Program-made: the position numbers and the translations under genes | The notes under the pieces: generated by a model | The model's database searches: none | What the model was told of the DNA's origin: nothing | Seen by the model: only the letters and a program-made list of their open reading frames with translations | In this document: piece after piece, positions 10,001 to 49,519 of the stretch | How positions within the stretch are numbered: the stretch's first letter is position 1 | Layout of the letters: every line of letters begins with the position of its first letter | IMG/VR virus record: IMGVR_UViG_3300032304_003098 | Span: 1-64,000 of that record | Length of the DNA stretch: 64,000 bases | DNA from: a virus | Direction: 5' to 3' (one strand)

Positions 10001-11800
10001 ATGAGTAAACACGAGGAAGAACAAATTGACTCCAATTACTGGTCCACTAAAAGAATTGAGGACTTATTAAGAAAAGTAGAAGAGGAAGGATTAGATTACA
10101 AATCGGTAGATAATCCATTTCATGATGGGGATCCTGATTTGAAAAAATCTAATTTGTTGTGGGAATACACCACAGAGGAGGTTCAAGAAATGCAGAAGTG
10201 CGCAAAAGACGTGGTTCATTTTGCACAATATTGCCAGGTAATGACAGACGATGGTTTACAGTACATTGGACTTAGAGATTATCAAGAATCTGTTCTACAA
10301 GAATATCAAAATAATCGTTTCAATATTTTATTGGCCCCGAGACAGATCGGAAAATCGATTTGTTCTTCTATCATTTTGATGTGGTATTTACTCTTCAACC
10401 ACGATAAAAACGCCATGATTTTAGCTAATGTGGGTTCTACAGCCGAAGAATTGATGGACAAAATTAAATCTATTGTTAAAGGATTGCCTTGGTTTCTAAA
10501 ACCCGGCATGATTGTAAACAACGTTATGTCAATGAAGTTTGATAACGGGTGTCGGGCCATAGCCAAGACAACTACCAAAACTACCGCGATTGGTTATACA
10601 ATTCATTTTCTGTATATGGACGAGTTTGCACACATTCATCCTAACTTCATTGAATCTTTTTTCAGATCTACCTATCCAACCGTATCTTCATCCAAAGTTT
10701 CTAGGATTATTATTACCTCGACACCAAATGGAATGAACAAATTCTATGATATTTATCAAGGAGCATTGTCCGGAGACAATTCTTTCAATCCGGTTCGGGT
10801 TGATTGGTGGCAAGTTCCAGGCAGAGACGAAGAATGGAAAAGAGAGGAAATCGCCAACTTAGGCAGTGAAGAACTTTTCAATCAAGAGTATGGAAATCAA
10901 TTTTTGAGTTCCACTTCTTTGCTTCTAGGTTCTAACGAGTTAAAAAAAATCAAATCCAATGAATCTGAGTATGTATGGAAAGAAATAGATGTTTTAGGAG
11001 ATTTGAGCATTGTATATGAAAACTTCAGATGGCATCCCAAATTTTCTTTGGACGACGCTTTTTTGGAAGATAAAAATTTTGTTTTTTCTGTGGATTTAGC
11101 CGGCGGGGGGAGAGGAGATTTTACGGTGATTAATATTTTTAGAGTTGTGCCTTTACCTAAAAAATTGATAGAATCTAACACCGATTACAAAGACGAAGCG
11201 GATTTTTTTGGTTTACTTCAGGTTGGGGTCTTCCGGGATAATGGTATTCAAATTGAAGATATTAAAAAAATGTTGGAGGCTTTGATTCTAAATGTTTTTG
11301 ACAAAGATAGACTCACAATCATTTTAGAGATGAATTTCAGAGGAGAACTTCTCTTAGATAAACTAATTTCTAATGATGAAATTTCTTTAGACATGTTTTT
11401 ACACACCAAACACACTGAATCTGCACGTTCAGCTAAACCCGGGATCAAATACAACGAAAAAAACAAAATGAAATATTGTGAAATGTTAAGGTCTCTGTTC
11501 CGACAAAATAGAGTCATGGTCAATGAAAAGGCCTGGACAATTCCCGAACTTTTTTCTTTTGGTTTGAATAACAGTGGCACATATTCTTCTCAATCTGGAC
11601 ACGATGACGTAGCTATGACCCTGGTTAACTTATCTGCTTTGTTTGAAACTTCTGCTTTCTATGATTTGATTGGGGATCTGTATGACAGAATGGACGAAGG
11701 TTATAGAGATTTGATTGAGTCCAAATTAGACGACAAGGAAAACGATGGAAAAACCAAGGAAGGAAACTTCTATAATTCTTTTAGTAAACTTATGTCGTGA
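10001..11800 (+). CDS. terL: Terminase large subunit (T4 gp17-like)
   Basis: LRDYQ, Walker A APRQIGKS, Walker B LYMDEFAH, ITSTPNG, nuclease SVDLAGG and GHDDVAM. Confidence 0.95.
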   Translation: MSKHEEEQIDSNYWSTKRIEDLLRKVEEEGLDYKSVDNPFHDGDPDLKKSNLLWEYTTEEVQEMQKCAKDVVHFAQYCQVMTDDGLQYIGLRDYQESVLQEYQNNRFNILLAPRQIGKSICSSIILMWYLLFNHDKNAMILANVGSTAEELMDKIKSIVKGLPWFLKPGMIVNNVMSMKFDNGCRAIAKTTTKTTAIGYTIHFLYMDEFAHIHPNFIESFFRSTYPTVSSSKVSRIIITSTPNGMNKFYDIYQGALSGDNSFNPVRVDWWQVPGRDEEWKREEIANLGSEELFNQEYGNQFLSSTSLLLGSNELKKIKSNESEYVWKEIDVLGDLSIVYENFRWHPKFSLDDAFLEDKNFVFSVDLAGGGRGDFTVINIFRVVPLPKKLIESNTDYKDEADFFGLLQVGVFRDNGIQIEDIKKMLEALILNVFDKDRLTIILEMNFRGELLLDKLISNDEISLDMFLHTKHTESARSAKPGIKYNEKNKMKYCEMLRSLFRQNRVMVNEKAWTIPELFSFGLNNSGTYSSQSGHDDVAMTLVNLSALFETSAFYDLIGDLYDRMDEGYRDLIESKLDDKENDGKTKEGNFYNSFSKLMS

Positions 11801-11896: not shown

Positions 11897-14800
11897 ATGG
11901 CTAAGAAAATCAAACTCGATTTATCACAATTCAAAGCTTCTGGTGTGTACACGCTGGAATTTGATGCCTCTGAAAACATCATCTTAACTTCACAAACGAT
12001 TCGTTTGGTGGTTGGTTTTTCAAATAAAGGTCCATTCAATGCTCCAGTTTATATCCCAGATGTAACAACCGCTGTTGCTATTTTTGGTGACATCGATAAA
12101 AATCTCGAATCACAAGGCTCATATTTCCAAAGATCAATTTTAACATGTCTTGCAACTGGGCCAGTTTTTGCCTTGAATTTGCTTCGTCTGAATAACGATG
12201 TTGATTCCCCAACAGCAGATAAAGTAGACTATTTTGGTTTTTCCGTCGCTACAGATGAACCTAACGGGGTTTTAACCTCTCGTCTATATTCTTCTTTCTA
12301 CAACAAAGAAAGATTTTGGTTTGCCGATGTGGATTATTTTCTGGCTACCATGTCGGTAGTAGACCAAGGTAGAATTTTTAATTTGGTGAATCTTGGACAG
12401 CAATCTATGTCTGTTATTGTTAGAAAATCCACCGATGCAACTCCTCCTTTGCAGGGATATGACGTATTTGCTATCGATTGGTATGGTGCCAATAACGTGC
12501 CCAGTTATGTTCACCCTTATGATTATATTTCAGATTGGTTTATTGATGTAATTGCTGTTTCTGGGAATTGGACTGACTATCAGGCTTTATCAGAAGATCC
12601 AGAATGGTCGGCTTTCTTTACCCCCAATGGATTCATCAAAAGTCAAATTAACAATTTCTTGAGTCAACAAAACGTAAACATTATTACGCAAGTAACTGGG
12701 TGTTTAATTCTAGATTTTGTAGATCTGAATGGGAACAATCAGTTTATTCAAACGCTGGTTAACAACAATACACCATCAACTGGTCTTTTCTGTGCTGTAG
12801 ACGCCGAAGGATTGGAATATCTTTGTCAAAATAGATTTAAAGTTGATTTGGTCGGTAACTTCTTAATTGACGAATTAACTGCAGATAGAGATCTAGCAGA
12901 TCCCAAGTTAAATTTCTTGAGTTATGATCAACAGTTAATTCAGGATTATCTTTACACCCAAAATTCAATTGGAATAACTGGCGGAGGAGTTACTGGAGGA
13001 ACAGCAGGTGTTGACTACACTTCATTGAACGTTGGAACATTATTTAACCTAGGTGGGGCAACTGGACCTACTGCTGGTGTACCAGCATCCGCTCTAGAAC
13101 CTTACGACCCAAGTTTAACATTTGGTGGTCTTCATTATCTTCGTACCAATTCTGGTGTTACTGGTGGTGCAGTAGTTAACGTGTGGGTTGGGGCAAGCGG
13201 GGGATCTGGGTACACTACAGCTCCTACAGTTACTTTTGTTAATCCGGCAGGAGCAACGGGAGCTTCAGCTTATGCTGTGATAAGCAGCGGGGGAAGTGTA
13301 ACTTCAATTGTTTTGACAAGCGGTGGATCAGGATATACTACTGCTCCTACAATTAGTCTAACTGGCGGTGGAGGTTCAGGAGCACAGGCTTACGCCGAAA
13401 TTTTAACCCAGCCTTCTTTAACCTCAGCAGAAAAATTAAGATTAAAAGATTTTGTTACGCCCACTCCTTCATACACCCCATTCATTCTTGGTACAGTTAC
13501 AATTCCTGCAGCAGCTACTGGAAACGTTATTAATCAATTTACAACAGGTGACTTGGTCAAACTCAAAATAACAGGGGTCAGGGAAATTTCAGGTAATTTA
13601 ACCATAACTTTCACACATCCACTAGATACTCCTGTTTATGCTTCCCAAGGAATTCAGGTTAGTCCTACTTCCTTTACAATGGGAACAACCTCTGGAACAG
13701 TTTCTGAATTTTATCAGCAGTTCGGGGCTTCAGATTATCTAGATATTGTAAGTGTGGCATCGATTACCGGTGGCACAGCTTCTAACTCACTAACAGGTCA
13801 GCTTACAACCAGTTTGTATCAAAATATCCTTTATCGTGAAATCGAGGATGGGGATATTATATGGTTAAATGAAACTGGAACAAATCTTTACTATGTGGAC
13901 ACACAATTGACGGTAGATAGAGACCAATTCAATGTTTCGTATGTCAGAGCATTTGATAATGTGGCTAGACAAAATCCAGACAATTTAGTAAACTATCCTG
14001 CCTTTGGAACAGTTTATGCTTTTGATAATATCGGTTTGCCAGTCTCTGCAGGAAAAACTGATATTATATCTAACGTAGCCTCAATCAATCAATTTCTGGA
14101 CGTGTTGACGAAAATAGATTCAACCAGTTTCACCTTTGTGCCCGACCAAGTGAATAATAAAATAATTTCAGTTGGCGATTATCTAGTTTCAACTGATTTA
14201 GAATTGTGTGAAACTGTAGGTGCAAACAGACAATCAAGATTGACCAAAGTAACCTCTGTGGCCCAAACCACGACTGCAGGTGTAGTAAGAGTAACATGTG
14301 CTAGACCTATATTTTATTATGCTGGATCACCAATTCAAGTCCAAAAGTTCAAATCAATTCCACAATTTACTAGATCGTTCGATTTTATCTACCTGAACGG
14401 CTACACCATGAGAGACGCCCAAAGGCCAAATGGGACTGATTTGAGGGTAGATGAAATTCTAAATGTTCTTTATGACACAAATTTGGCTGCAACTTTGGCA
14501 ACCAAAGATGTTATTTCTTTCCGTTACATTGTGGATACGTTTAGCGGTACAATTCAGCCAAATTCTAAGTACCAGCTTTCGAAATTGGCCATGATGAGGC
14601 AAAAAGCTTTGGCTTTTATCAATGCTCCTTCGATGGCTCAGTTCAGAGCTAGTACAGACCCTAGATTTACCAACGCACCTACTCCATCTGATCCATTCCC
14701 TTCTCTGGAAGCACAGTACATAGCTGAAGGGGGTAACTTATCTTTGAATCCTTCCTATACTTTTAGCCTTCCTACACAAGATTTAGGAGCTTCATTCGCT

Positions 14801-15439
14801 GGATATTTCACCCCTTACATTACCATCAGGGAAAATAACAGAAACACAAACGTACCTCCCGCAGCTTACGTTTCAAACAATTTTGTTAGAAAATTTGCCA
14901 ACGGGGAACCCTACAACATTATTGCAGGTCAGAAAAGAGGTACCATCTCAGGAGGCAATATTGTAGGTTTAGAGTATGACTTCACTGATGAAGATCGTGG
15001 TTGGTTAGAACCATTCGGGTTGAACCCTATTATTAAGAAGAGGGGATTTGGCGTTGTTATCTTTGGCAACCAAACTGCTTATCAAACTGTGAATTCTGCG
15101 TTTAGTTTGCTTCACGTGAGAGATCTTCTTATAAGTCTTGAGAACGATGTGGAAGAAATTTTGGCTAATTACCTGTTTGATTTCAACGAAGATTCCATTC
15201 GCTTAGAAATCAAAACTCTGGTTGATACTTATTTGGATGGTGTCAGAGCAGGAGGAGGAATTTATGCCTACCAAGTTATCATGGATGCATCTAACAATCC
15301 TCCTTCGGTCATCGACATGAATATGGGAATCATTGATGTTATCATAGAGCCTGCTCGAGGCATACAGAAGTTTATCAATCGAATCACTGTAACCCGCACA
15401 GGAGGCATCGCTTCAGGAGGTTTCATCAATTTCGTATAA
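11897..15439 (+). CDS. Contractile tail sheath protein (gp18-like) with large insertions
   Basis: N-terminal SGVYTLEFD, GFSNKGPFNAPV; C-terminal VPPAAYVS, LNPII, IFGNQT, LHVRDLL, YLFDFN. Confidence 0.93.
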   Translation: MAKKIKLDLSQFKASGVYTLEFDASENIILTSQTIRLVVGFSNKGPFNAPVYIPDVTTAVAIFGDIDKNLESQGSYFQRSILTCLATGPVFALNLLRLNNDVDSPTADKVDYFGFSVATDEPNGVLTSRLYSSFYNKERFWFADVDYFLATMSVVDQGRIFNLVNLGQQSMSVIVRKSTDATPPLQGYDVFAIDWYGANNVPSYVHPYDYISDWFIDVIAVSGNWTDYQALSEDPEWSAFFTPNGFIKSQINNFLSQQNVNIITQVTGCLILDFVDLNGNNQFIQTLVNNNTPSTGLFCAVDAEGLEYLCQNRFKVDLVGNFLIDELTADRDLADPKLNFLSYDQQLIQDYLYTQNSIGITGGGVTGGTAGVDYTSLNVGTLFNLGGATGPTAGVPASALEPYDPSLTFGGLHYLRTNSGVTGGAVVNVWVGASGGSGYTTAPTVTFVNPAGATGASAYAVISSGGSVTSIVLTSGGSGYTTAPTISLTGGGGSGAQAYAEILTQPSLTSAEKLRLKDFVTPTPSYTPFILGTVTIPAAATGNVINQFTTGDLVKLKITGVREISGNLTITFTHPLDTPVYASQGIQVSPTSFTMGTTSGTVSEFYQQFGASDYLDIVSVASITGGTASNSLTGQLTTSLYQNILYREIEDGDIIWLNETGTNLYYVDTQLTVDRDQFNVSYVRAFDNVARQNPDNLVNYPAFGTVYAFDNIGLPVSAGKTDIISNVASINQFLDVLTKIDSTSFTFVPDQVNNKIISVGDYLVSTDLELCETVGANRQSRLTKVTSVAQTTTAGVVRVTCARPIFYYAGSPIQVQKFKSIPQFTRSFDFIYLNGYTMRDAQRPNGTDLRVDEILNVLYDTNLAATLATKDVISFRYIVDTFSGTIQPNSKYQLSKLAMMRQKALAFINAPSMAQFRASTDPRFTNAPTPSDPFPSLEAQYIAEGGNLSLNPSYTFSLPTQDLGASFAGYFTPYITIRENNRNTNVPPAAYVSNNFVRKFANGEPYNIIAGQKRGTISGGNIVGLEYDFTDEDRGWLEPFGLNPIIKKRGFGVVIFGNQTAYQTVNSAFSLLHVRDLLISLENDVEEILANYLFDFNEDSIRLEIKTLVDTYLDGVRAGGGIYAYQVIMDASNNPPSVIDMNMGIIDVIIEPARGIQKFINRITVTRTGGIASGGFINFV

Positions 15440-28054: not shown

Positions 28055-28414
28055 ATGTCTAAAGTTTATGTTACAAATGCTAGTTTAATGGAAGCCATTT
28101 TGGAGTCCAAAGAAAAAGGGCAGTTGACACCAAAAACTATAGAAATGTTTAATTTGATGATAACAGGTATTTCCAAGAAAATGGCTTACAAAGATCCAGA
28201 CGACAAAGCAGATTGTATGGCTTTTGCAATGGAAGACCTTTGTAAATATTGGAACAGATTTGATCCTGCCAAATCTAATAATCCGTTTGCTTATTATACG
28301 CAGATAGCTAAAAATGGATTTGCCAAGGGATGGAAAAAAATACATCCTCCAAAAGCACCCAAAACTATTCCATTTTCTTATATTACAGGAGAAGACAATT
28401 CCTATAATATTTAG
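28055..28414 (+). CDS. Late-transcription sigma factor (T4 gp55-like, short)
   Basis: YVTNxxL start; FDPAKSNNPFAYYTQIAKN signature. Confidence 0.8.
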   Translation: MSKVYVTNASLMEAILESKEKGQLTPKTIEMFNLMITGISKKMAYKDPDDKADCMAFAMEDLCKYWNRFDPAKSNNPFAYYTQIAKNGFAKGWKKIHPPKAPKTIPFSYITGEDNSYNI

Positions 28415-28900
28415 ATGACTGACATTAAGAAAATCAAGCCTAATGGGGATTATAAATCTGGTTTGTATGTGCCAGTCAATCCTGAAAAATATGTGGGTGA
28501 TATCCACAATATTATTTGTAGATCTAGTTGGGAATTTCGTTTTTGTAAATATTGCGATAACAACGAAAAAATTCTGAAGTGGAGTTCAGAGCCTGCGGCG
28601 ATTCCTTATTACAATCCACTCGACAAGAAAGAACATCAATATAACGTAGATTTTTACATTAGAGTTCTTCAAGATAATGGCACAGAACAAGACTGGTTAG
28701 TAGAAGTAAAACCCCAAAAACAACACCAGAAGCCAATCTATGAAGGAACCTACACCGAGGAAAAATTAAAATCATACAATCATAAAATGCAAATTTGGAT
28801 TACGAATCAATCCAAGTTCAAAGCCGCTAAACATTGGGCAGAAAGCAGGGGTATGAAATTTGGTGTAGTGGACGAAAAATTCTTGTTTCAAGGTAAATGA
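28415..28900 (+). CDS. Head completion nuclease (T4 gp4-like, TnsA-N fold)
   Basis: PVNPEKYVGD, RSSWE, WSSE, YNVDF, VEVKP, NQSKFKAA. Confidence 0.88.
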   Translation: MTDIKKIKPNGDYKSGLYVPVNPEKYVGDIHNIICRSSWEFRFCKYCDNNEKILKWSSEPAAIPYYNPLDKKEHQYNVDFYIRVLQDNGTEQDWLVEVKPQKQHQKPIYEGTYTEEKLKSYNHKMQIWITNQSKFKAAKHWAESRGMKFGVVDEKFLFQGK

Positions 28901-29499
28901 AAGACTTTGTAGAACAAGCTAAAAAGTTGAGAAATGAATTCTCTTCTCTGTCCAAATTGAATTCTTCAGTGAATGAAGAATTTTTGAAAAAATACGGCCC
29001 AAATTCAGATGAATCTTTAGAAAAATTTTCCTCTTTCAAAAGTGGAAAAATTTACTTTGCACTTAATACTACAAAATACAAAGCAGGAGAAAAGAATTCT
29101 TTTGTAAATAGATATCCGTGTTTCCTGTTCCTTTCAGAGGAAAGAACACAAAGCGGTATAATCTGTAAAGTGATGGACTTAACTATAATTCCTTCTGATT
29201 ATAGAGCGGAAATTCTCACCAGACTGACTTCAACTTTTGGTGAAATTATTCAAGAGAATATAAGAAACTTACAAAGTTCCCAAATGCCTTTAAATTTAAA
29301 AGGCGAAAATTTACAAAAAATTCTGAAAGGTACGGGATACGAGTTTGCAATTTTTGGTTTTAAAATGGAAAATTTACAAAATATCAAAATTGTAGATTAT
29401 GCAGATTGGATTAAAATTCCCTTCCTAAGTCATGCTTCTTTAGAGGGTCTCTCATTACAAAAGATATATAGCGAATATAAATCGAAAATAAAAATCTGA
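28897..29499 (+). CDS. Possible DNA end-protector (gp2-like) protein
   Basis: GKIYF...NRYP motif, adjacent to the gp4-like gene; weak match. Confidence 0.35.
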   Translation: MKDFVEQAKKLRNEFSSLSKLNSSVNEEFLKKYGPNSDESLEKFSSFKSGKIYFALNTTKYKAGEKNSFVNRYPCFLFLSEERTQSGIICKVMDLTIIPSDYRAEILTRLTSTFGEIIQENIRNLQSSQMPLNLKGENLQKILKGTGYEFAIFGFKMENLQNIKIVDYADWIKIPFLSHASLEGLSLQKIYSEYKSKIKI

Positions 29500-29529: not shown

Positions 29530-31176
29530 ATGGCAGGATTTAACGAGAATCCAAACACCAACCCTATTTTTCAAAGAATCAGGGATTCCGTCAAAAATCT
29601 GAGTAATTTCGGATTGAGATATGGAGACATGGTGGTAAAAAATTCTCAAGCTATCGGTACCACGGAAGCGGAATTTTTAAAAAAAGGTCCAATTGAAGAC
29701 GAGACGACTTTTTTTTCTTTAGGCCGTCAGGATACCACAACAAGGCAATACATTTCTTATTTCGATAAAGATTATGCAGGAAAAAGAGACTATCTGAGAA
29801 AATTTTCTTTGAATCCAGAAATCGAATACATTTTAGATACTGTTTGTGATGAATCTATTTCCTATGATGGTTATAATTTTTTTGCTTATCCGGCATTTTT
29901 AAACATTACAGGAATTAAGGAAGGGGTCATAGATAAGATTGACTCCACATACAAGAAATTGTATGACATGTTTGGCTTCAACGATGACATTTCTGCTTGG
30001 CAGTATTTCAGGCAATTATTGGTTGATGGATTTGTTGCCTTTGAAATTATTTACGACGATAAGGGAAAAAACATTATAGGTTTCAAAGAACTCGATGCAA
30101 CCACGCTGATGCCATCTGTAGAAAAACAGAAGGATGGTACTTTTTTGAATGTTTGGTATCAATACCCTAAAGACGAAAGAAAAAGGAGAATGCTTTATGA
30201 TTCTCAGATTATTTACATCTCCTACGCCAAAGGCAATTCTGTGTCAAGAGTTAGTTACACCGAAAGATTAATCCGCCCTTATAACGTCCTGAGGATCATT
30301 GAATATACACGTGTTATTTGGTCAGTGATGAATGCATCATTTCGTCTCAAAATGACAGTTCCCGTGGGGTCCAGATCGCAACAAAAGGCGATGCAAACCT
30401 TAGGTGAATTAATGAGTATCTATAAAGAAGACATTCAGTTCAATGATGAAAGTGGAGAACTTTCAGTAAATGGTCAACCTAAGATTCAGTTTTACAAAAA
30501 CTATCTGATGCCCAAAGGTGCATTAGGAACTCCAAACATTGAGCCTCTAAACACTGTCGGTCCAAATTTAAATGATCCGGCTCCACTGGCTTATTTTTTT
30601 GATAAACTTGTTCAGGAATCAAAAATTCCTTTCTCGAGATTTCAAGGTCCAGATGGAGGATCTATTGGTAAATATGCTAACTCTGCTGAAGGCCTGGATA
30701 AGGAAGAAATTAGGTTTGCCAAGTTTATCATGAGGTTAAGATCTATTTTTCAAGATATTCTAATCAAACCTTTGTGGATTCAATTGTGTAGAGACTTTCC
30801 CCAGTTGGAGAAAGATTATATGTTCAGAAGTCAATTGGGCCTTACCTTTATTTCTGATAATCCCTTTAGGGTGAATCAGGAGATAGAAACTATGAACAAA
30901 AGAAAAGAGTCTATTGATGCCATGTACCAGTTGGTAGATGGAGAGGGACAACCTTTCTTTTCTTTGGGATATTTGATTGAAAATTTTCTTGGTATGACGG
31001 AAGACGATATTCGTTCTAACGAAGAGGCCAAGGAAAAAACAGAAAAAAAGAAAAAGAAATCTGAACCAGGAGAAGAGGACGGAGAAGAAGCTGGAGCAGC
31101 CCCAGGGGAATCCCCTACACCTCCAGCAGGTCCTGAACCTGGTGGTACACCCCCTGAAACAGAAACACCGGAATAA
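29530..31176 (+). CDS. Portal protein 1 (T4 gp20-like)
   Basis: PEIEYILD, FRQLLVDG, SYTERLIRPYNVL, KIPFSRF, EEIRFAKFIMRLR; GATATATA at 29463. Confidence 0.88.
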   Translation: MAGFNENPNTNPIFQRIRDSVKNLSNFGLRYGDMVVKNSQAIGTTEAEFLKKGPIEDETTFFSLGRQDTTTRQYISYFDKDYAGKRDYLRKFSLNPEIEYILDTVCDESISYDGYNFFAYPAFLNITGIKEGVIDKIDSTYKKLYDMFGFNDDISAWQYFRQLLVDGFVAFEIIYDDKGKNIIGFKELDATTLMPSVEKQKDGTFLNVWYQYPKDERKRRMLYDSQIIYISYAKGNSVSRVSYTERLIRPYNVLRIIEYTRVIWSVMNASFRLKMTVPVGSRSQQKAMQTLGELMSIYKEDIQFNDESGELSVNGQPKIQFYKNYLMPKGALGTPNIEPLNTVGPNLNDPAPLAYFFDKLVQESKIPFSRFQGPDGGSIGKYANSAEGLDKEEIRFAKFIMRLRSIFQDILIKPLWIQLCRDFPQLEKDYMFRSQLGLTFISDNPFRVNQEIETMNKRKESIDAMYQLVDGEGQPFFSLGYLIENFLGMTEDDIRSNEEAKEKTEKKKKKSEPGEEDGEEAGAAPGESPTPPAGPEPGGTPPETETPE

Positions 31177-31178
31177 TT

Positions 31179-32780
31179 ATGGCAGGTTTTAATGATGATA
31201 GTAGTCAACAGCGTTCCTTTTTAGGCAACTTGTATCGAAATTTGTCTAGAATCGGGAGATTTGGGATGCAATATGAGGATATGGTAATCCGAAATTCCCA
31301 GGCTATAGGAGCCACCGAATCTACATTCTTTAATAATCAAGGAACTGGATTTACTGAGGATGATGCTTTCTTTTGGACTTTAGGTTATCAAGACACTAGG
31401 GTAAGAAAATATATTGCCTATTTCGATAAAGATTATTTGGGCAAAAGAGAATTTCTCAGAAAATTTGCTCTAAATGGAGAAATTGATTTTATTCTAGACA
31501 CCTTGTCTGACGATGGAATTAATTACGATGACAAAAATTTCTTCGGCTATCCTTCTCTATTAAATGTAGATTTGAAACCGGAAGTTCGAACCAAAGTAGA
31601 GGAGAATTTCAGAACTCTGTATATGCTTTTTGGTTTTCAACAAAGCACTTTGGCTTGGCAGTATTTTCGTCAATTTCTAGTAGATGGTTTTTTAGCTTTT
31701 GAAATTGTTTATTCTACGGATGGCAAGAAAATTGTTGGATTCAAAGAATTAGATGCCACATCTTTGCAACCAGCCACCGAACAACAGCCCAACAAGGAAT
31801 TTCAACAAATTTGGATTCAATATCCCGGAGATCCCCGGATGACCCGTAAACTAAAAGCTGAACAAGTTATTTATCTCTCTTATGCTAAAGGAAACTCCGT
31901 TTCTAGAGTAAGTTATACAGAAAGACTTATTAGATCCTATAATATTCTAAGGGTGATGGAAAACACCAGAATAATTTGGAATGTGATGAATGCCTCATAT
32001 CGCTTGAAGTTTGTCATCCCAGTCGGAACCCAATCCGCCCAGAAAGCGATGCAAACCTTGGGTCAACTTATGTCTCAGTACAAGGAGGAAATTCAAATTA
32101 ACGATACTTCCGGTGAATTAACAGTAAACGGAGCACCCAAGATTCAATTTTATAAAAATTATTTGTTCCCTGAAAAGGACGGAGAAAGCCCAGACATCAA
32201 CACATTAAATCCCAATGGTCCTGATTTCAATGTGATGGAAAATGTTGTGTATTTTTACAATAAATTGAAATTAGATTCGAAGATCCCCTATGCTAGGTTT
32301 GCTTCCCGTAGTGGACCAGCTACCTATCAAATTTCTATCGATCAGTTGGAGAGGGATGAAATTAGATATGAAAAATTTGTAACCCGCCTGAGATCAGTCT
32401 TTCAAGAGCTTTTGGTTAAACCTCTGTACATTCAAACCTGTTTAGATTTTCCAGCTTTATCTGAAGATAGATCTTTCAAAGTAAATTTGGGGTTAAATTT
32501 TGTGAAGGAAAATGTCTTTGAACAACTCATTATGTTGTCCAATTACACCAAAAGAACTGCTTTCATAACAGCTTTAGGTGACATGAAACAAAGAATAGGA
32601 GAGGAAGAAATTCCCTATTTCGATAAAGAATGGCTGATTAAAAGGTGGCTAGGTTTAAGTATGGACGAATATAGGGCCAATGAAAAATACAAAGAGGAAG
32701 AAAAGAAAAGAGCAGAAAAAGATAAGAAGAACAAGAAGCCAGAGGGAGCAGAAGGAGGAGCACCGGAATTCACTCTTTAA
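31179..32780 (+). CDS. Portal protein 2 (full-length paralog)
   Basis: Collinear with portal 1: YFDKDY, FRQFLVDG, YAKGNSVSRVSYTERLIR, QKAMQTLG, RDEIRYEKFVTRLR. Confidence 0.88.
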   Translation: MAGFNDDSSQQRSFLGNLYRNLSRIGRFGMQYEDMVIRNSQAIGATESTFFNNQGTGFTEDDAFFWTLGYQDTRVRKYIAYFDKDYLGKREFLRKFALNGEIDFILDTLSDDGINYDDKNFFGYPSLLNVDLKPEVRTKVEENFRTLYMLFGFQQSTLAWQYFRQFLVDGFLAFEIVYSTDGKKIVGFKELDATSLQPATEQQPNKEFQQIWIQYPGDPRMTRKLKAEQVIYLSYAKGNSVSRVSYTERLIRSYNILRVMENTRIIWNVMNASYRLKFVIPVGTQSAQKAMQTLGQLMSQYKEEIQINDTSGELTVNGAPKIQFYKNYLFPEKDGESPDINTLNPNGPDFNVMENVVYFYNKLKLDSKIPYARFASRSGPATYQISIDQLERDEIRYEKFVTRLRSVFQELLVKPLYIQTCLDFPALSEDRSFKVNLGLNFVKENVFEQLIMLSNYTKRTAFITALGDMKQRIGEEEIPYFDKEWLIKRWLGLSMDEYRANEKYKEEEKKRAEKDKKNKKPEGAEGGAPEFTL

Positions 32781-32790
32781 ATTAGTATAG

Positions 32791-33768
32791 ATGGAATTCA
32801 AAAATTTATTTTCTACTAAAAAAATTCTAGTAGTTGGGGATTCTATTTTAGATCACTATGTGTATGGAAAGGTGCACAGGATATCGCCAGAAGCTCCTGT
32901 TCCTGTTGTGTTGAAGAGTGAGGAAGAATTTTTTCTAGGCGGAGCTGCTAACGTGGCCCAGAATATTACAGCCTTTGGAGCCCAGTGTACTTTGTTATCC
33001 TTAACTGGGCTCGATTTAGAGAGGGATATATTATCCCAAAAGTGTTTTGAACAAAATATAAATCCGGTTTTTATAGTAGATGAAAGTAGACCCACAACTA
33101 AAAAAACAAGGGTGTTGGGGAACAAACACCAAATTGTAAGAATCGATCACGAGAAAACACACGGATTGTCTGTTGGATTAAGTCTTAAAGTATCCCAAAT
33201 TTTCGAAAATGAAATTCTAAACCATGACGGGGTTATTTTTCAAGACTATGGTAAAGGTTTGCTAACTAGAGATTTACTGAAGCTTTTAATTCAAATTTCA
33301 CAAAAACACAATCGACAAATTTTAGTAGATCCCAAAGAACCTGATCTTTTTAGATACCAAGGAGTTTCTTATATCAAACCAAATTTGAATGAGTTCAAGT
33401 CCATGCTAAATTTGAAAATCGAAGAAGAGTTGGAAATTCCTCAAATCGTAGATTATGCTCAAAAAGCATTGAGTGATTTTGATTATGAATGTTTTCTCAT
33501 CACCTTGTCAGAACGTGGAATTTTGGTGGTTAAAAAAGACTTCTGGCACCACGTACCTGGCATCAAAGTGGATGTTTCTGATGTGTCTGGGGCTGGTGAC
33601 ACAGTCAGTGCAGTATTTGCTTTGGGAATTTTTGCTGGACTAAGAAAGCCTATTTCTGAGTTGGAACTTGTCCAAATTGCAGAGTCGGCAAATTTGGCTG
33701 GATCTCTAGTTTGCAGACACCTGGGGGCGGTGCCAGTTGACCCTGTTGAATTATTTAATTACCCTTAA
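32791..33768 (+). CDS. rfaE: D-glycero-beta-D-manno-heptose-7-phosphate kinase (HldE/RfaE domain I, PfkB family)
   Basis: LVVGDSILDHY, RISPEAPVPV, GGAANVA, DYGKG, DVSGAGDTV. Confidence 0.9.
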   Translation: MEFKNLFSTKKILVVGDSILDHYVYGKVHRISPEAPVPVVLKSEEEFFLGGAANVAQNITAFGAQCTLLSLTGLDLERDILSQKCFEQNINPVFIVDESRPTTKKTRVLGNKHQIVRIDHEKTHGLSVGLSLKVSQIFENEILNHDGVIFQDYGKGLLTRDLLKLLIQISQKHNRQILVDPKEPDLFRYQGVSYIKPNLNEFKSMLNLKIEEELEIPQIVDYAQKALSDFDYECFLITLSERGILVVKKDFWHHVPGIKVDVSDVSGAGDTVSAVFALGIFAGLRKPISELELVQIAESANLAGSLVCRHLGAVPVDPVELFNYP

Positions 33769-38250: not shown

Positions 38251-38685
38251 ATGGAACTCTTTGATGTCGTTAAGGCCATCTTCGGTCCAGAAAAAACGTG
38301 GAACTCTGTAGGTAAGGCAGATAAGACCCGAAATTTTTTTATGGTCAATAGGATTATGTCGATCCAATTTCCTCTTCAAGCCCAAGAATTCAATCATACT
38401 AAAATTGTTCCTGATCTAGTGGTAAACTGGTGGAGATCTGCTTTATCGCCCAAATTCAACAAAGCTCCAGGGTGGATATCTACATCCACCTCCAAAAAAG
38501 AAGGCAATAAATCTACCCAGAAAATTAAAAACTTCGAAGTGGTAGAGGATTTTATTAGGACCAGGTATCAAATTAGCAAAAGGGAACTGCAAGAAATGAA
38601 ACAATTCTTTCCCGAACAATATCATGATTGGCTAAAATCATTGTCCCAACAATTGGGAACAGAAAATATAAAAGCCGATATATAA
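38251..38685 (+). CDS. Probable clamp loader small subunit (gp62-like)
   Basis: MELFD..., FMVNRIMS, PGW pattern similar to gp62; near the gp44-like gene. Confidence 0.5.
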   Translation: MELFDVVKAIFGPEKTWNSVGKADKTRNFFMVNRIMSIQFPLQAQEFNHTKIVPDLVVNWWRSALSPKFNKAPGWISTSTSKKEGNKSTQKIKNFEVVEDFIRTRYQISKRELQEMKQFFPEQYHDWLKSLSQQLGTENIKADI

Positions 38686-45747: not shown

Positions 45748-47775
45748 ATGGAAGATCTACCATTTATGAACGAGAACTGGGTGTTTATTTTGGAGAAGCA
45801 AGGTCATCACGTAGAGGCTTCTAAAACCTCAGATGGCTACACTCTACAGGGTATAGCAGCACAGTTTGGCAAAGAAAATAACAACAACAGGATCTACGAG
45901 GAAAGCGAGTATCTGCCACATCTGGATTATCTGAAAGAAAAAATCAAACAAAAAAGATTGGTTGGTGAATTAGACCATCCTGAAAAATTTGATGTTTCTC
46001 TGAAAAACATTTCTCATATTATAGAAGATTTACAGTACGACAAAAGTGCTCGGGTATTGAAGATCAAGGTCAAATTGCTTGATACTCCAGCTGGTCAAAT
46101 TGCCAAAAAATTGGTTGAAGCTGGAATTCCTCTTTCCATTTCTTCTCGTGCCGCTGGTAATGTGGGTCCTAACAAAAAAGTTCAAATTAAAAAAATCTTC
46201 ACTTATGATTTGGTAGCTGATCCTGGATTTCAGGATGCACAACTAGAAAGAGTGTACGAAAGTGCTGGTTTTTCATTCTCTGAATTTTCAGATAGACACA
46301 AAAATTCCGTTGTTAACGATTTAAAATGTTTGAATGAGTCCTTAGGAATCAAAAATGATTCGGGAGTGATGATATATAAGGTTGATGATAACGAAGAATT
46401 CAAAAAAATATTCAAAACAGAAAAAAATAAAATTGACATCATGGAGTCCAGAAAAGAATATGTAACGAGTGAAGAACTCAACAATTATTCCATTTTCTTA
46501 AAGAAAAAAATGGATGAGCTCGAGTCTCAAATTAAAGAAGCTAAGTCTACCCAGAATTTGGTAGAAAGCTCGGATTCATACACACAAAAACTTGAAGAAA
46601 GAGTAGACCGTCTTGAAAAGTACTGTGAGTACTTGGCCGAGAATTTGGAAAATTCCATTAAGTATGGTGAATATGTAGCCGAGAATTTGGACAATTCCAT
46701 CACTTACAGTAAATATCTAGCCGAGAATTTGGACAAGAACATTTCTTACTCTAAGTATCTGGCTGAAAACGTAGATAAGTCAATTCTCTATTCAGAGTAC
46801 GTGGCAGAAAATGTCGACAAAGGAATTAACTACTCTAAATATCTTGCCGAGAAATTAGATGACAGCATTCAATATGCAGAATACCTGGCTGAAAATGTGG
46901 ATCATACAATTTCCTATTCCGAATACCTGGCCGAAAATGTGGACAGAAATATTTCTTATTCTGAGTATTTGGCAGAGAAGTTGGACAGAAACATTTCTTA
47001 TGCCGAATACCTGGCCGAGAATTTGGACAAAGGCATAGCCTACTCAGAGTATCTAGGCGAAAATCTCGATAAAGGGATTGCTTACTCTGAATATCTGGGT
47101 GAAAAACTAGAACAAGGAATTTCTTATTCGGAATATCTAGCGGAAAATGTGAATAGAACCATCTCCTATTCCGAGTACATCGCAGAAAAATTAAATGGCA
47201 CGATTTCGTTCACCGAGTCTGTATCCGAAAGCGTTGGTTATCAACCCCTAGTTGAAAAAGACGCACGGAGACAGGCAGAAGTCGCCTCAAGAACTGAATT
47301 AGCGGAGTCTGGCTTTGCCGGAGATTATACCAATCTCGGCAAACAAATTGATTTTCTAATTGAGTCGGTCCAAACCCAAAAGACCGAAACAAACCAAAAA
47401 CAGGCTGCAAGCAAATGGCAGCCGACTGCTGACACACAAAAAGCAGATCAAGTTCTCAATGAGAACGATGAAGCCAAATTTAAAACTGGCCACAAGTTCA
47501 TTGATGAGATGCCAACGGATTACGTTCCGATTTGGGAGTCGTTAAGTGAAGGACACCAGCAATCTATTATTGCCCAGGCTGCTCTTCGTAATCTTAACAC
47601 CCCTTATCAGATTAGAAATTTCTGGTCAACTCGTCAGTTTGGACCTAAGCCTTTGGCTTTGCAAAAATTGCAAGAGAATGAAAATTTCTCAGAGGCCTCT
47701 AACCCTCGGACCCCAACTCCTTACAACAACGATTACCTAAGTTGGGTGGCTAAGTCGCTAGAAGGCAAATTCTAA
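45748..47775 (+). CDS. Prohead protease (gp21-like) fused to scaffold (gp22-like)
   Basis: ENNNNRIY, GELDHP, LLDTPAG, ISSRAAG, YDLVADPGF, then coiled-coil repeats; GATATATA at 45719. Confidence 0.92.
   Translation: MEDLPFMNENWVFILEKQGHHVEASKTSDGYTLQGIAAQFGKENNNNRIYEESEYLPHLDYLKEKIKQKRLVGELDHPEKFDVSLKNISHIIEDLQYDKSARVLKIKVKLLDTPAGQIAKKLVEAGIPLSISSRAAGNVGPNKKVQIKKIFTYDLVADPGFQDAQLERVYESAGFSFSEFSDRHKNSVVNDLKCLNESLGIKNDSGVMIYKVDDNEEFKKIFKTEKNKIDIMESRKEYVTSEELNNYSIFLKKKMDELESQIKEAKSTQNLVESSDSYTQKLEERVDRLEKYCEYLAENLENSIKYGEYVAENLDNSITYSKYLAENLDKNISYSKYLAENVDKSILYSEYVAENVDKGINYSKYLAEKLDDSIQYAEYLAENVDHTISYSEYLAENVDRNISYSEYLAEKLDRNISYAEYLAENLDKGIAYSEYLGENLDKGIAYSEYLGEKLEQGISYSEYLAENVNRTISYSEYIAEKLNGTISFTESVSESVGYQPLVEKDARRQAEVASRTELAESGFAGDYTNLGKQIDFLIESVQTQKTETNQKQAASKWQPTADTQKADQVLNENDEAKFKTGHKFIDEMPTDYVPIWESLSEGHQQSIIAQAALRNLNTPYQIRNFWSTRQFGPKPLALQKLQENENFSEASNPRTPTPYNNDYLSWVAKSLEGKF
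46441..47775 (+). CDS. Putative nested in-frame scaffold protein
   Basis: Internal GATATATA at 46371 plus an A-rich leader before in-frame ATG 46441. Confidence 0.55.
   Translation: MESRKEYVTSEELNNYSIFLKKKMDELESQIKEAKSTQNLVESSDSYTQKLEERVDRLEKYCEYLAENLENSIKYGEYVAENLDNSITYSKYLAENLDKNISYSKYLAENVDKSILYSEYVAENVDKGINYSKYLAEKLDDSIQYAEYLAENVDHTISYSEYLAENVDRNISYSEYLAEKLDRNISYAEYLAENLDKGIAYSEYLGENLDKGIAYSEYLGEKLEQGISYSEYLAENVNRTISYSEYIAEKLNGTISFTESVSESVGYQPLVEKDARRQAEVASRTELAESGFAGDYTNLGKQIDFLIESVQTQKTETNQKQAASKWQPTADTQKADQVLNENDEAKFKTGHKFIDEMPTDYVPIWESLSEGHQQSIIAQAALRNLNTPYQIRNFWSTRQFGPKPLALQKLQENENFSEASNPRTPTPYNNDYLSWVAKSLEGKF
46621..47208 (+). repeat. 14 tandem 42-bp coding repeats (YSEYLAENLDKxIS)
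   Basis: Counted in the translation; period 14 aa. Confidence 0.95.
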
Positions 47776-47800: not shown

Positions 47801-49519
47801 ATGAAACTAATTAATGAAGCTGAGATCTTCGATACCTGGTCGCCTATCATCGAGCAGAAAGCCGGTATCACTGATCCATCCAAAAAAGCGTGGTTGTCTA
47901 TATACTGCCACTATCACTCCCTCAACGAGTCTGCTGGTGCATACCAGTCTTTGAACGTCGTCAACGGTATGGGAGCCGTTGCACCTCCTGTTTTCCCAGC
48001 CTCAACTCAAGCTGGCTCTGTTGGTGGTTACGGGCCAAACCAAGGATTCTACAGCCAATCTTGGCAAGGATCTGGCGATAAGTTTCCTTCGCTTTTGCCT
48101 TTGGCTATTCAGGTAGCTGCAAAAACCGTAGGTTTCGATATTGTTCCAGTTATTCCAATGTCTGGTCCTTCCGGTGTTCTATCCTATCTGGACTATGTGT
48201 ATGCTGGCGGTAAGCTCAGCCCACAATCTACAGGTACCACTGCAGCCGATGCCTTGGCCGCAGCTCCTGCTATGATTAAGCTGCAAATTACTTCCTATGC
48301 TGGAGGATATCCTGGTAGTTTCGTAGTAGGTACAACTTATTTCATCACCAATGCTTCTTCAGCAGCTGAATATATCACCACTAAGTTTGTTGGTCTTTCA
48401 AGAATCGATGGTTTCCCAATCTTCGAAATTACTGCAATCACTGCAGGGGAATCTGTTGCATCTGTTATCAATGGAGGTGCTACCAAAGTCGGTACTGGAG
48501 TAGATGGAAGCCAAGCAGGAACCACTACTGCTTCGGCTTCTTTGGTTAAGGCACTTGAAGATCACATCCAAGGTTTCTCTGGAGCTGGTTTCTACGACAA
48601 CCAAGACTGGCAGGGTCCTTACGTTGATGGTACCAAGACGTACAACCCAATGCTTAGAAGCGTAGGTGAAGAAAACTACTACAACTTGATGGGTCTTTCG
48701 ACTTTCACAAAGTTTGTAGAAGCCGACACTTTCCAAGTAGCTGCTTCCGTCACCACGGAGCAAATCCAAGACCTTAATAAGCAGTTCGGTATCGATGTCA
48801 TTTCGATGATTGAGAACGCACTGGTCAATGAGGTTTCTCAGGCTATTAACAAGCACATTCTTGCCAGAGCTTTTGCTTTAGGCTGGTCTAACTGTGATAA
48901 CTTCAACACAGTAGAAGGTCAAAATTTGAACTTGAATCTGGTCATCGGTGGAACCGCTGGTTCTTACACCATTCCTTCTTATGTTGGAAAAACAGACCAG
49001 GCTTTGACCATGACTGGTACTGCAGGTCCTGCTTCTGGAACTTATGAGAACTTGTCAACTCTACAAAGAAGACTTTTCTCTCGTATCCTGGCAGCCGCTA
49101 ACGTAGTAGCTAACAGAGGTAGAAGAGGTCCTGCTAACTTCATTGTCACCAACGCAAACTTGGCTTCGGCAATGCAGGATATCAGCCAATTCACCTTTGC
49201 TCCTTTCACTAATACCTTGACTCAGAACAACGGTACTTTGTACCCAGTTGGTTCTTTGGCCGGTATGACAGTGTATGTGGACCAAAACATGAGGTACAAC
49301 GATACCAGAATCCTCGTTGGAAGAAAAGGTGGTGATGATGAGCCAGGTCTCAAATTCATGCCTTACATGATGGCAGAATCAATTCAGACAATCTCTGAAG
49401 GTACAATGTCTCCTAAAATCGCAGTTAAGTCTCGTTACGCTCTTGTAGAGGCTGGTTTCCACCCCGAAACCATGTATCTTTGCTTTAATGTTAACTTGCC
49501 TGCTGGCGGTCTGGTTTAA
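47801..49519 (+). CDS. Major capsid protein (T4 gp23-like)
   Basis: VPVIPMSGPSG, TEQIQDL..QFGID, RRGPANFIV, VYVD, FMPY, KSRYAL; LNE cleavage-like site. Confidence 0.95.
   Translation: MKLINEAEIFDTWSPIIEQKAGITDPSKKAWLSIYCHYHSLNESAGAYQSLNVVNGMGAVAPPVFPASTQAGSVGGYGPNQGFYSQSWQGSGDKFPSLLPLAIQVAAKTVGFDIVPVIPMSGPSGVLSYLDYVYAGGKLSPQSTGTTAADALAAAPAMIKLQITSYAGGYPGSFVVGTTYFITNASSAAEYITTKFVGLSRIDGFPIFEITAITAGESVASVINGGATKVGTGVDGSQAGTTTASASLVKALEDHIQGFSGAGFYDNQDWQGPYVDGTKTYNPMLRSVGEENYYNLMGLSTFTKFVEADTFQVAASVTTEQIQDLNKQFGIDVISMIENALVNEVSQAINKHILARAFALGWSNCDNFNTVEGQNLNLNLVIGGTAGSYTIPSYVGKTDQALTMTGTAGPASGTYENLSTLQRRLFSRILAAANVVANRGRRGPANFIVTNANLASAMQDISQFTFAPFTNTLTQNNGTLYPVGSLAGMTVYVDQNMRYNDTRILVGRKGGDDEPGLKFMPYMMAESIQTISEGTMSPKIAVKSRYALVEAGFHPETMYLCFNVNLPAGGLV

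Follow-up and report, generated by a model that had tools for sequence, protein, structure and literature searches.

Two diverged T4 gp20-type portal genes kept in tandem by a clade of large phages: a possible heteromeric portal

The sequence studied here, referred to as the window, corresponds to the first 64 kb of a 109.6-kb viral contig from IMG/VR (record IMGVR_UViG_3300032304_003098), the completeness of which was estimated at about 40% by CheckV. This window carries two consecutive open reading frames (ORFs) encoding portal proteins of the T4 gp20 type, designated copy 1 (the upstream gene) and copy 2 (the downstream gene). A preliminary description of the locus had presented them as two intact ORFs of 548 and 533 amino acids (aa), lying 2 nucleotides (nt) apart, collinear and diverged, and had proposed three explanations for their coexistence: a heteromeric portal, separate packaging and ejection vertices, or alternative head types. 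The coordinates and the TAA-tt-ATG junction agree with this layout (Table 1). Both genes were found to be conserved side by side and under strong constraint among many relatives, and their products may build one portal ring together.

Both proteins clearly belong to the gp20 family. Copy 1 aligned with positions 7–431 of the 433 positions of the Portal_T4 profile (PF07230) with a score of 206 bits, and copy 2 with positions 9–433 with 199.4 bits, for a curated cut-off of 22.9 bits; both copies also matched PHROG 213, annotated as portal protein. The two sequences are 52% identical in an alignment of 506 aa containing 14 gaps. In keeping with the long identical peptides and diverged termini first noticed, stretches of up to 19 residues are identical, and the copies differ at both ends. 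AlphaFold 2 (AF2) models gave a mean predicted local distance difference test score (pLDDT) of 69.8 for copy 1 and 66.3 for copy 2, the wing and helix α8 being confidently modelled and the clip and tails being of low confidence. When these models were submitted to Foldseek, the top matches of both were T4 gp20 chains (9MKB, 9LU7, 6UZC, 3JA7) with a probability of 1.0 and E values of 5.5e-19 (copy 1) and 2.1e-20 (copy 2), identity to T4 gp20 being below 20% in these fold-search alignments. The order of the secondary structure elements in both copies agrees with the wing, stem, clip and crown map of T4. The likeness to T4 gp20 (PF07230; 3JA7, 6UZC, 9MKB, 9LU6, 9LU7) includes the fold, this four-part layout, a lysine equivalent to T4 K296 and a late-gene neighbourhood, since the pair is located within a set of T4-like late morphogenesis genes in the window.

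To look at the distribution of the pair, IMG/VR was searched and 32, then 80 loci were fetched, of at least 544 relatives detected. Both portal genes were intact, in the same order and separated by −1 to 23 nt in 93 loci originating from many IMG/VR samples and representing 63 distinct pairs. Exactly two Portal_T4 genes, in tandem, were also present in four relatives which are 99–100% complete, of 373 kb (with terminal repeats), 344, 290 and 271 kb, so that the rule of one portal gene per genome is broken by two full-length genes both here and in complete genomes. This differs from T4 and from 1,121 matching GenBank records, which have one full-length copy. Among the 1,121 GenBank phage records matching copy 1, a second match was found only in LR756501 and LR756503, as a short fragment. 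LR756501 (L007), a 735-kb phage, contains on its minus strand (15166–15351) a 101-aa ORF which matches only the C-terminal (crown) end of Portal_T4 (profile positions 374–431, E value 1.8e-5), far from the real portal gene of this phage.

Loci with a single intact portal gene were all cut by a contig end, with the exception of one contig (L008/L040), a 99%-identical relative. In this contig a 1-nt deletion, from A5 to A4, at about position 8250 of L008 breaks the frame of copy 2, which is the sole broken copy among the fetched loci; this break may be a sequencing error. It is the observation that would favour one copy being an artefact of assembly, the result of a recent duplication or a pseudogene in decay. 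This explanation is refuted by the 63 distinct intact pairs from many samples, by the identity of only 52% between the copies, by the strong constraint on both (ratio of nonsynonymous to synonymous substitution rates, dN/dS, of about 0.02), and by independent contigs spanning the junction, and we give it practically no credit. The bridging contigs come from two other samples of the source study and were used only as confirmation of the junction, not of habitat; none of them contained a joint skipping a copy. The view that the pair is not an assembly duplicate is thus upheld, and the second portal copy should not be annotated as one.

A maximum-likelihood tree was built from 72 sequences with the single-copy portals of LR756500, LR756501, LR756504 and PAU as outsiders; the Lak phage portal was left out because a long ATG-initiated ORF was not found under table 11. 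All the members of the pairs formed one clade, with a Shimodaira–Hasegawa-like approximate likelihood ratio test (SH-aLRT) support of 99, which excluded the single-copy portals. Within it, the upstream copies formed one clade (SH-aLRT 97) and the downstream copies were on the other side of the branch (support 77), the two subtrees being mirror images at the level of the subclades. This tree gave no indication of gene conversion between the copies. In the sister lineage, composed of LR756500 and of relatives 64% identical to it, each locus carries a single portal. The single pair clade, the mirrored subtrees and the single-portal sister lineage all point to one old tandem duplication followed by vertical inheritance of both copies. 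Synonymous sites are already saturated between orthologues whose proteins are about 92% identical, indicating that the paralogs are old. The median pairwise dN/dS, calculated by the Nei-Gojobori method on pairs with a dS of 0.05–2, was 0.027 for copy 1 and 0.022 for copy 2, which denotes strong purifying selection. Two checks proposed in the preliminary description were thereby carried out: phylogeny and synteny gave a single duplication, mirrored subtrees and the same gene order in the 63 distinct pairs, and relaxed selection, which would have spoken against a function for both copies, was observed for neither of them (dN/dS about 0.02–0.03). Both paralogs are therefore retained and constrained, as expected for the subunits of a heteromer.

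The layout of the locus suggests that the two genes are expressed together. The motif GATATATA occurs at 17 sites in the window for 1.5 expected, all of them on the plus strand and mostly just 5' of structural genes. These sites include 6601, 11810, 11861, 25122, 29463, 45719 and 49583, the next one after 29463 being at 38677. The gp55-like sigma factor encoded in the window may use this motif as a late promoter, which would be common to both portal genes. Of 64 distinct loci, 62 have the motif 23–73 nt ahead of copy 1, and none has it within copy 1 or at the junction. The T4 late promoter TATAAATA was not enriched in the window (2 matches for 3.7 expected), and sigma-70-like promoters and intrinsic terminators around the pair were at chance level. 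Because one motif precedes copy 1, none is found at the junction and the gaps range from −1 to 23 nt, with a 2-nt spacer here leaving no room for a promoter or a terminator, the pair looks like one late bicistronic unit. The single candidate motif and the 2-nt spacing likewise suggest co-expression of both copies.

This arrangement also bears on the hypothesis of alternative, redundant portals, in which either homomer would serve, according to conditions or as an insurance against portal-sensing host defences. Both copies are indeed complete, and portal proteins of phages are among the known targets of bacterial Avs-type sensors. However, redundant genes are normally lost in some lineages, and no sampled lineage of this deep clade has lost either copy. 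Moreover, both copies are under strong purifying and not diversifying selection, and they belong to one operon without a separate regulatory site. We therefore consider redundancy to be quite improbable.

To localize the differences between the two copies, the domains of T4 gp20 (PMC4493910) were mapped onto both of them using a HMMER alignment and the AF2 secondary structure, the boundaries beyond residue 330 being approximate. Only 3 sites were fixed differently between the copies across all three subclades of the tree at the 90% level, and the enrichment test was consequently restricted to clades A and B, in which 31 paralog-specific fixed sites were counted at the 85% level. These sites were enriched in stem α7 and the channel loop (6/18, odds ratio 10, p 2e-4) and in stem α5 (4/24), and depleted in the N-terminal wing (3/184, p 0.003). 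The clip helix α6 is nearly identical between the copies, and all 68 sequences have a lysine in the clip at the position equivalent to T4 K296. The T4 portal touches the capsid through its wing, and its clip is bound by the terminase gp17 and the neck protein gp13 (PMC4493910, PMC12929587). When the ancestral states were deduced from the outgroups, copy 2 was found to keep 11 sites and copy 1 to keep 10, that is, about half each.

A charge difference was observed in the tunnel loop. Its net charge is zero or negative in copy 1 and at least +1 in copy 2 in 63 of 63 distinct pairs, and within pairs the charges vary inversely (Spearman rho −0.48, without correction for phylogeny). The tunnel loops of the outgroups are negative, like those of copy 1. 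An opposite charge in the channel loop was looked for as well and not seen here, both copies being negative in this loop; the charge split lies in the tunnel loop instead. In T4, adjacent tunnel loops touch each other and help to set the 12-mer, and deletion of the loop leads to 11-mers and 13-mers (PMC4493910).

Since the tunnel and channel loops differ consistently between the copies, and since each copy has every portal domain and could form a ring alone, the pair might instead encode two separate homododecameric rings with different jobs. One would be the true packaging and ejection portal, and the other would have a different location, such as a position on top of the crown within the head, as the base of a core or inner body, or a second special vertex. 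The extra internal structures which giant capsids often carry, as in phiKZ-like phages, are in line with this explanation, and the separate packaging and ejection vertices initially suggested are likewise possible. On the other hand, both copies keep the same wing, the same clip helix α6 and the same K296-equivalent lysine, as expected for one common site, and the symmetric retention of ancestral residues means that neither copy looks like a derived accessory.

Another difference resides at the C-terminus. Many copies terminate in [F/V/I]-T-[L/I] behind an acidic linker. In the window, copy 2 ends in such a tip, after an acidic and lysine-rich linker, and copy 1 has a variable tail rich in proline, glutamate and threonine without a hydrophobic tip. 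Of the 63 distinct pairs, 36 carry the tip only on the downstream copy, 11 only on the upstream copy and 14 on both, and 2 lack it altogether, so that at least one copy keeps it in 61 of 63 genomes. It has been lost from the upstream copy in clade A and in L084/L088, and from the downstream copy in clade C and in L077, L097/L099 and L105. Such reciprocal loss is expected if either subunit can supply the tip to a shared assembly. By analogy with the T4 crown, the tip would point into the capsid interior. Its loss from either copy, depending on the lineage, argues for interchangeable positions and adds to the points against two separate rings, which we regard as rather unlikely.

Other duplicated genes were searched for with blastp. 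The 109.6-kb contig contains only three pairs of paralogs at E <1e-5, namely the portals, two tandem tail-tube genes whose products are 56% identical, and fibre-like genes. The latter are tandem tail-fibre-like paralogs of 491 and 526 aa with 36% identity, located outside the window (contig G000, 100402–101877 and 101889–103469; L122:16402–19469). Of all full-length tandem pairs in the complete 271-kb relative, the closest two are those of the tube and of the portal. Two tube genes were found in the six dual-portal records tested (G001, G003, G004, G006, G007 and G010), the deepest subclade included, and one tube gene in the single-portal LR756500, LR756501 and G008, a contig of the sister lineage. 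The two duplications thus have the same distribution among the relatives examined. In contractile injection systems, one of two tube paralogs forms an initiator ring. Two tube proteins have also been reported in the gene clusters of these systems (PMC7394362), which leaves the link between tube and portal duplications only suggestive.

No second full-length capsid gene was found in the 109.6-kb contig or in the complete relatives. The latter possess one full gp23-like gene and a short, distant Gp23-family ORF of about 305–313 aa, far from the major capsid gene (G001, 242467–242988; G002, 243037–243558; G003, 170687–171217; G004, 178465–179139), which is probably a gp24-like vertex protein; this short ORF was not found in the contig of the window. 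Alternative head types are disfavoured by the presence of only a single full-length major capsid gene and a single prohead protease, both here and in the complete relatives. Of the three options put forward at the outset, this one can be set aside, and the heteromeric portal fits best.

Taken together, these results are best accommodated by a heteromeric portal with both paralogs in one ring, most simply and probably in an alternating 6+6 order, a reading to which we give about an even chance. It is preferred because of the single operon, the mirrored trees, the common wing, the complementary ancestral residues, the reciprocal loss of the tip and the charge split, together with the obligate retention of both copies, their equal constraint and the co-duplication of the tube gene, which encodes another ring of the DNA conduit. 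In the proposed mechanism, the two genes, which derive from the single old tandem duplication of a portal gene of the T4 gp20 type, would be transcribed together from one late promoter to give products in similar amounts. Both proteins would then co-assemble into a single twelve-subunit ring, the simplest order being an alternation of 6+6 with a resulting six-fold symmetry. Both subunits would keep the capsid-binding wing and the clip helix docking the terminase and the neck, and the channel-side features, i.e. stem α7 and the channel loop, the tunnel-loop charge, the clip charge and the C-terminal tip, would be split between them.

A six-fold portal is structurally plausible, because the T4 conduit steps from 12-fold to 6-fold just below the portal, the portal-neck junction comprising 12 gp20, 12 gp13 and 6 gp14 (PMC12929587, PMC12929629). 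A 6+6 portal would resemble the T4 neck in this step and would place it inside the portal itself, unlike T4, where it occurs at the gp13/gp14 layer below the portal and is not made by portal paralogs. A more specific version can be proposed, in which the portal is an obligate alternating A6B6 hetero-dodecamer that was duplicated together with the tail tube. The whole portal-to-tube conduit would then have half the usual symmetry, and the subunits would divide DNA gating, through tunnel loops of unlike charge, and internal anchoring, through the C-terminal tip. We hold this version tentatively, at somewhat below an even chance.

Several points weigh against the heteromeric portal. Most of the evidence also fits two separate homododecamers, and both the co-assembly in one ring and the alternating order are inferred from sequence data. 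The small number of sites fixed differently across the three subclades suggests that divergence was gradual, with no sharp early specialisation of the copies. The tunnel-loop charge differences are consistent but small, namely 0 and +1 in the window. Two pairs (L079 and L117, both on long branches) have no tip on either copy, and the co-duplication of the tube may be unrelated to the portal. Finally, a fused two-portal protein was not found among proteins of 960–2740 aa at E ≤1e-10, in a search which was weak.

The features of the locus and of its neighbourhood are listed in Table 1. The 200-aa ORF located between the gp4-like gene and the portal genes has no family match; LR756500 and LR756501 have ORFs of comparable length (212 and 252 aa, respectively) in the corresponding place, and this ORF may be a portal-associated factor. 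Downstream of the pair, a gene encoding a PfkB-family sugar kinase starts 10 nt past copy 2. As it is on the same strand and no promoter motif is found between copy 2 and this gene, it may ride on the late transcript of the portals.

Table 1. Features of the portal locus and of the T4-like late genes in the 64-kb window.
Feature	Position	Strand	Remarks
Large terminase	10001-11800		T4-like late gene
Sheath	11897-15439		T4-like late gene
Tail-tube paralog, 184 aa	15493-16047	+	PHROG tail-tube match
Tail-tube paralog, 193 aa	16063-16644	+	PHROG tail-tube match
gp55-like sigma	28055-28414		T4-like late gene
gp4-like head-completion nuclease	28415-28900		T4-like late gene
200-aa ORF	28897-29499		No family match
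Candidate late promoter GATATATA	29463..29470	+	Inside the 3' end of the upstream 200-aa ORF, 60 nt before portal 1
Portal paralog 1 ('up'), T4 gp20 type, 548 aa	29530..31176	+	Pfam PF07230, E 1.1e-60
Tunnel-loop segment of copy 1, residues 366-388	30625..30693	+	Net charge 0
Spacer between copy 1 stop and copy 2 start, 2 nt	31177..31178	+	TAA-tt-ATG
Portal paralog 2 ('down'), T4 gp20 type, 533 aa	31179..32780	+	Pfam PF07230, E 1.1e-58
Tunnel-loop segment of copy 2, residues 369-389	32283..32345	+	Net charge +1
C-terminal tip F-T-L of copy 2	32769..32777	+	After acidic/Lys-rich linker
PfkB-family sugar kinase	32791-33768	+	
Prohead protease	45748-47775		T4-like late gene
gp23-like capsid gene	47801-49519		T4-like late gene; one only

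A near-identical GenBank phage was not found by megablast. The best GenBank matches of the portals were in the huge phage LR756500 (462 kb), at about 45% identity, followed by LR756501–LR756504 and LR745206 (634–735 kb) at 35–38% and by Lak phages at 35%. Further matches were found in phages of Bacteroidota hosts (Tenacibaculum, Chryseobacterium) and in Sphingomonas phage PAU. As there is no close GenBank phage and the portal matches include phages of Bacteroidota hosts, a host among the Bacteroidota is only a guess. LR756500 shares with the window the pattern of gene sizes upstream of the portal (124, 166 and 212 aa in LR756500), and its portal resembles the pair by its C-terminal tail, which is acidic or of low complexity and has an aromatic residue at its end. 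Unlike the contig studied here, the genomes of LR756500 and LR756501 each have a single full-length portal gene and a single tail-tube gene.

Heteromeric rings which arose by gene duplication are known in other systems, such as the T4 capsid proteins gp23 and gp24, the α and β subunits of the thermosome, RUVBL1 and RUVBL2, and the heterotrimeric PCNA of archaea. The portal pair resembles them in that the gene of a homomer was duplicated, both paralogs appear indispensable and ancestral features are split between them; it differs from them in that co-assembly was experimentally shown in these systems, and is inferred here. The portal is regarded as a one-gene homododecamer in tailed phages and herpesviruses, as is the T4 ring, from which the present pair departs by two paralogs kept by a whole clade. 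Twelve identical subunits are accordingly assumed in models of how heads assemble, of symmetry mismatch, and of DNA packaging and gating. Literature searches retrieved no account of a phage with two portal genes, nor of one with a heteromeric portal. A clade of 270–370 kb phages with two long-kept, diverged portal subunits would therefore represent a natural experiment. It would show which portal functions can be split between neighbouring subunits, among them those of the channel and tunnel loops, the clip charge and the internal C-terminal tip, and whether a six-fold portal can work, a question which is directly testable even though these phages are uncultured.

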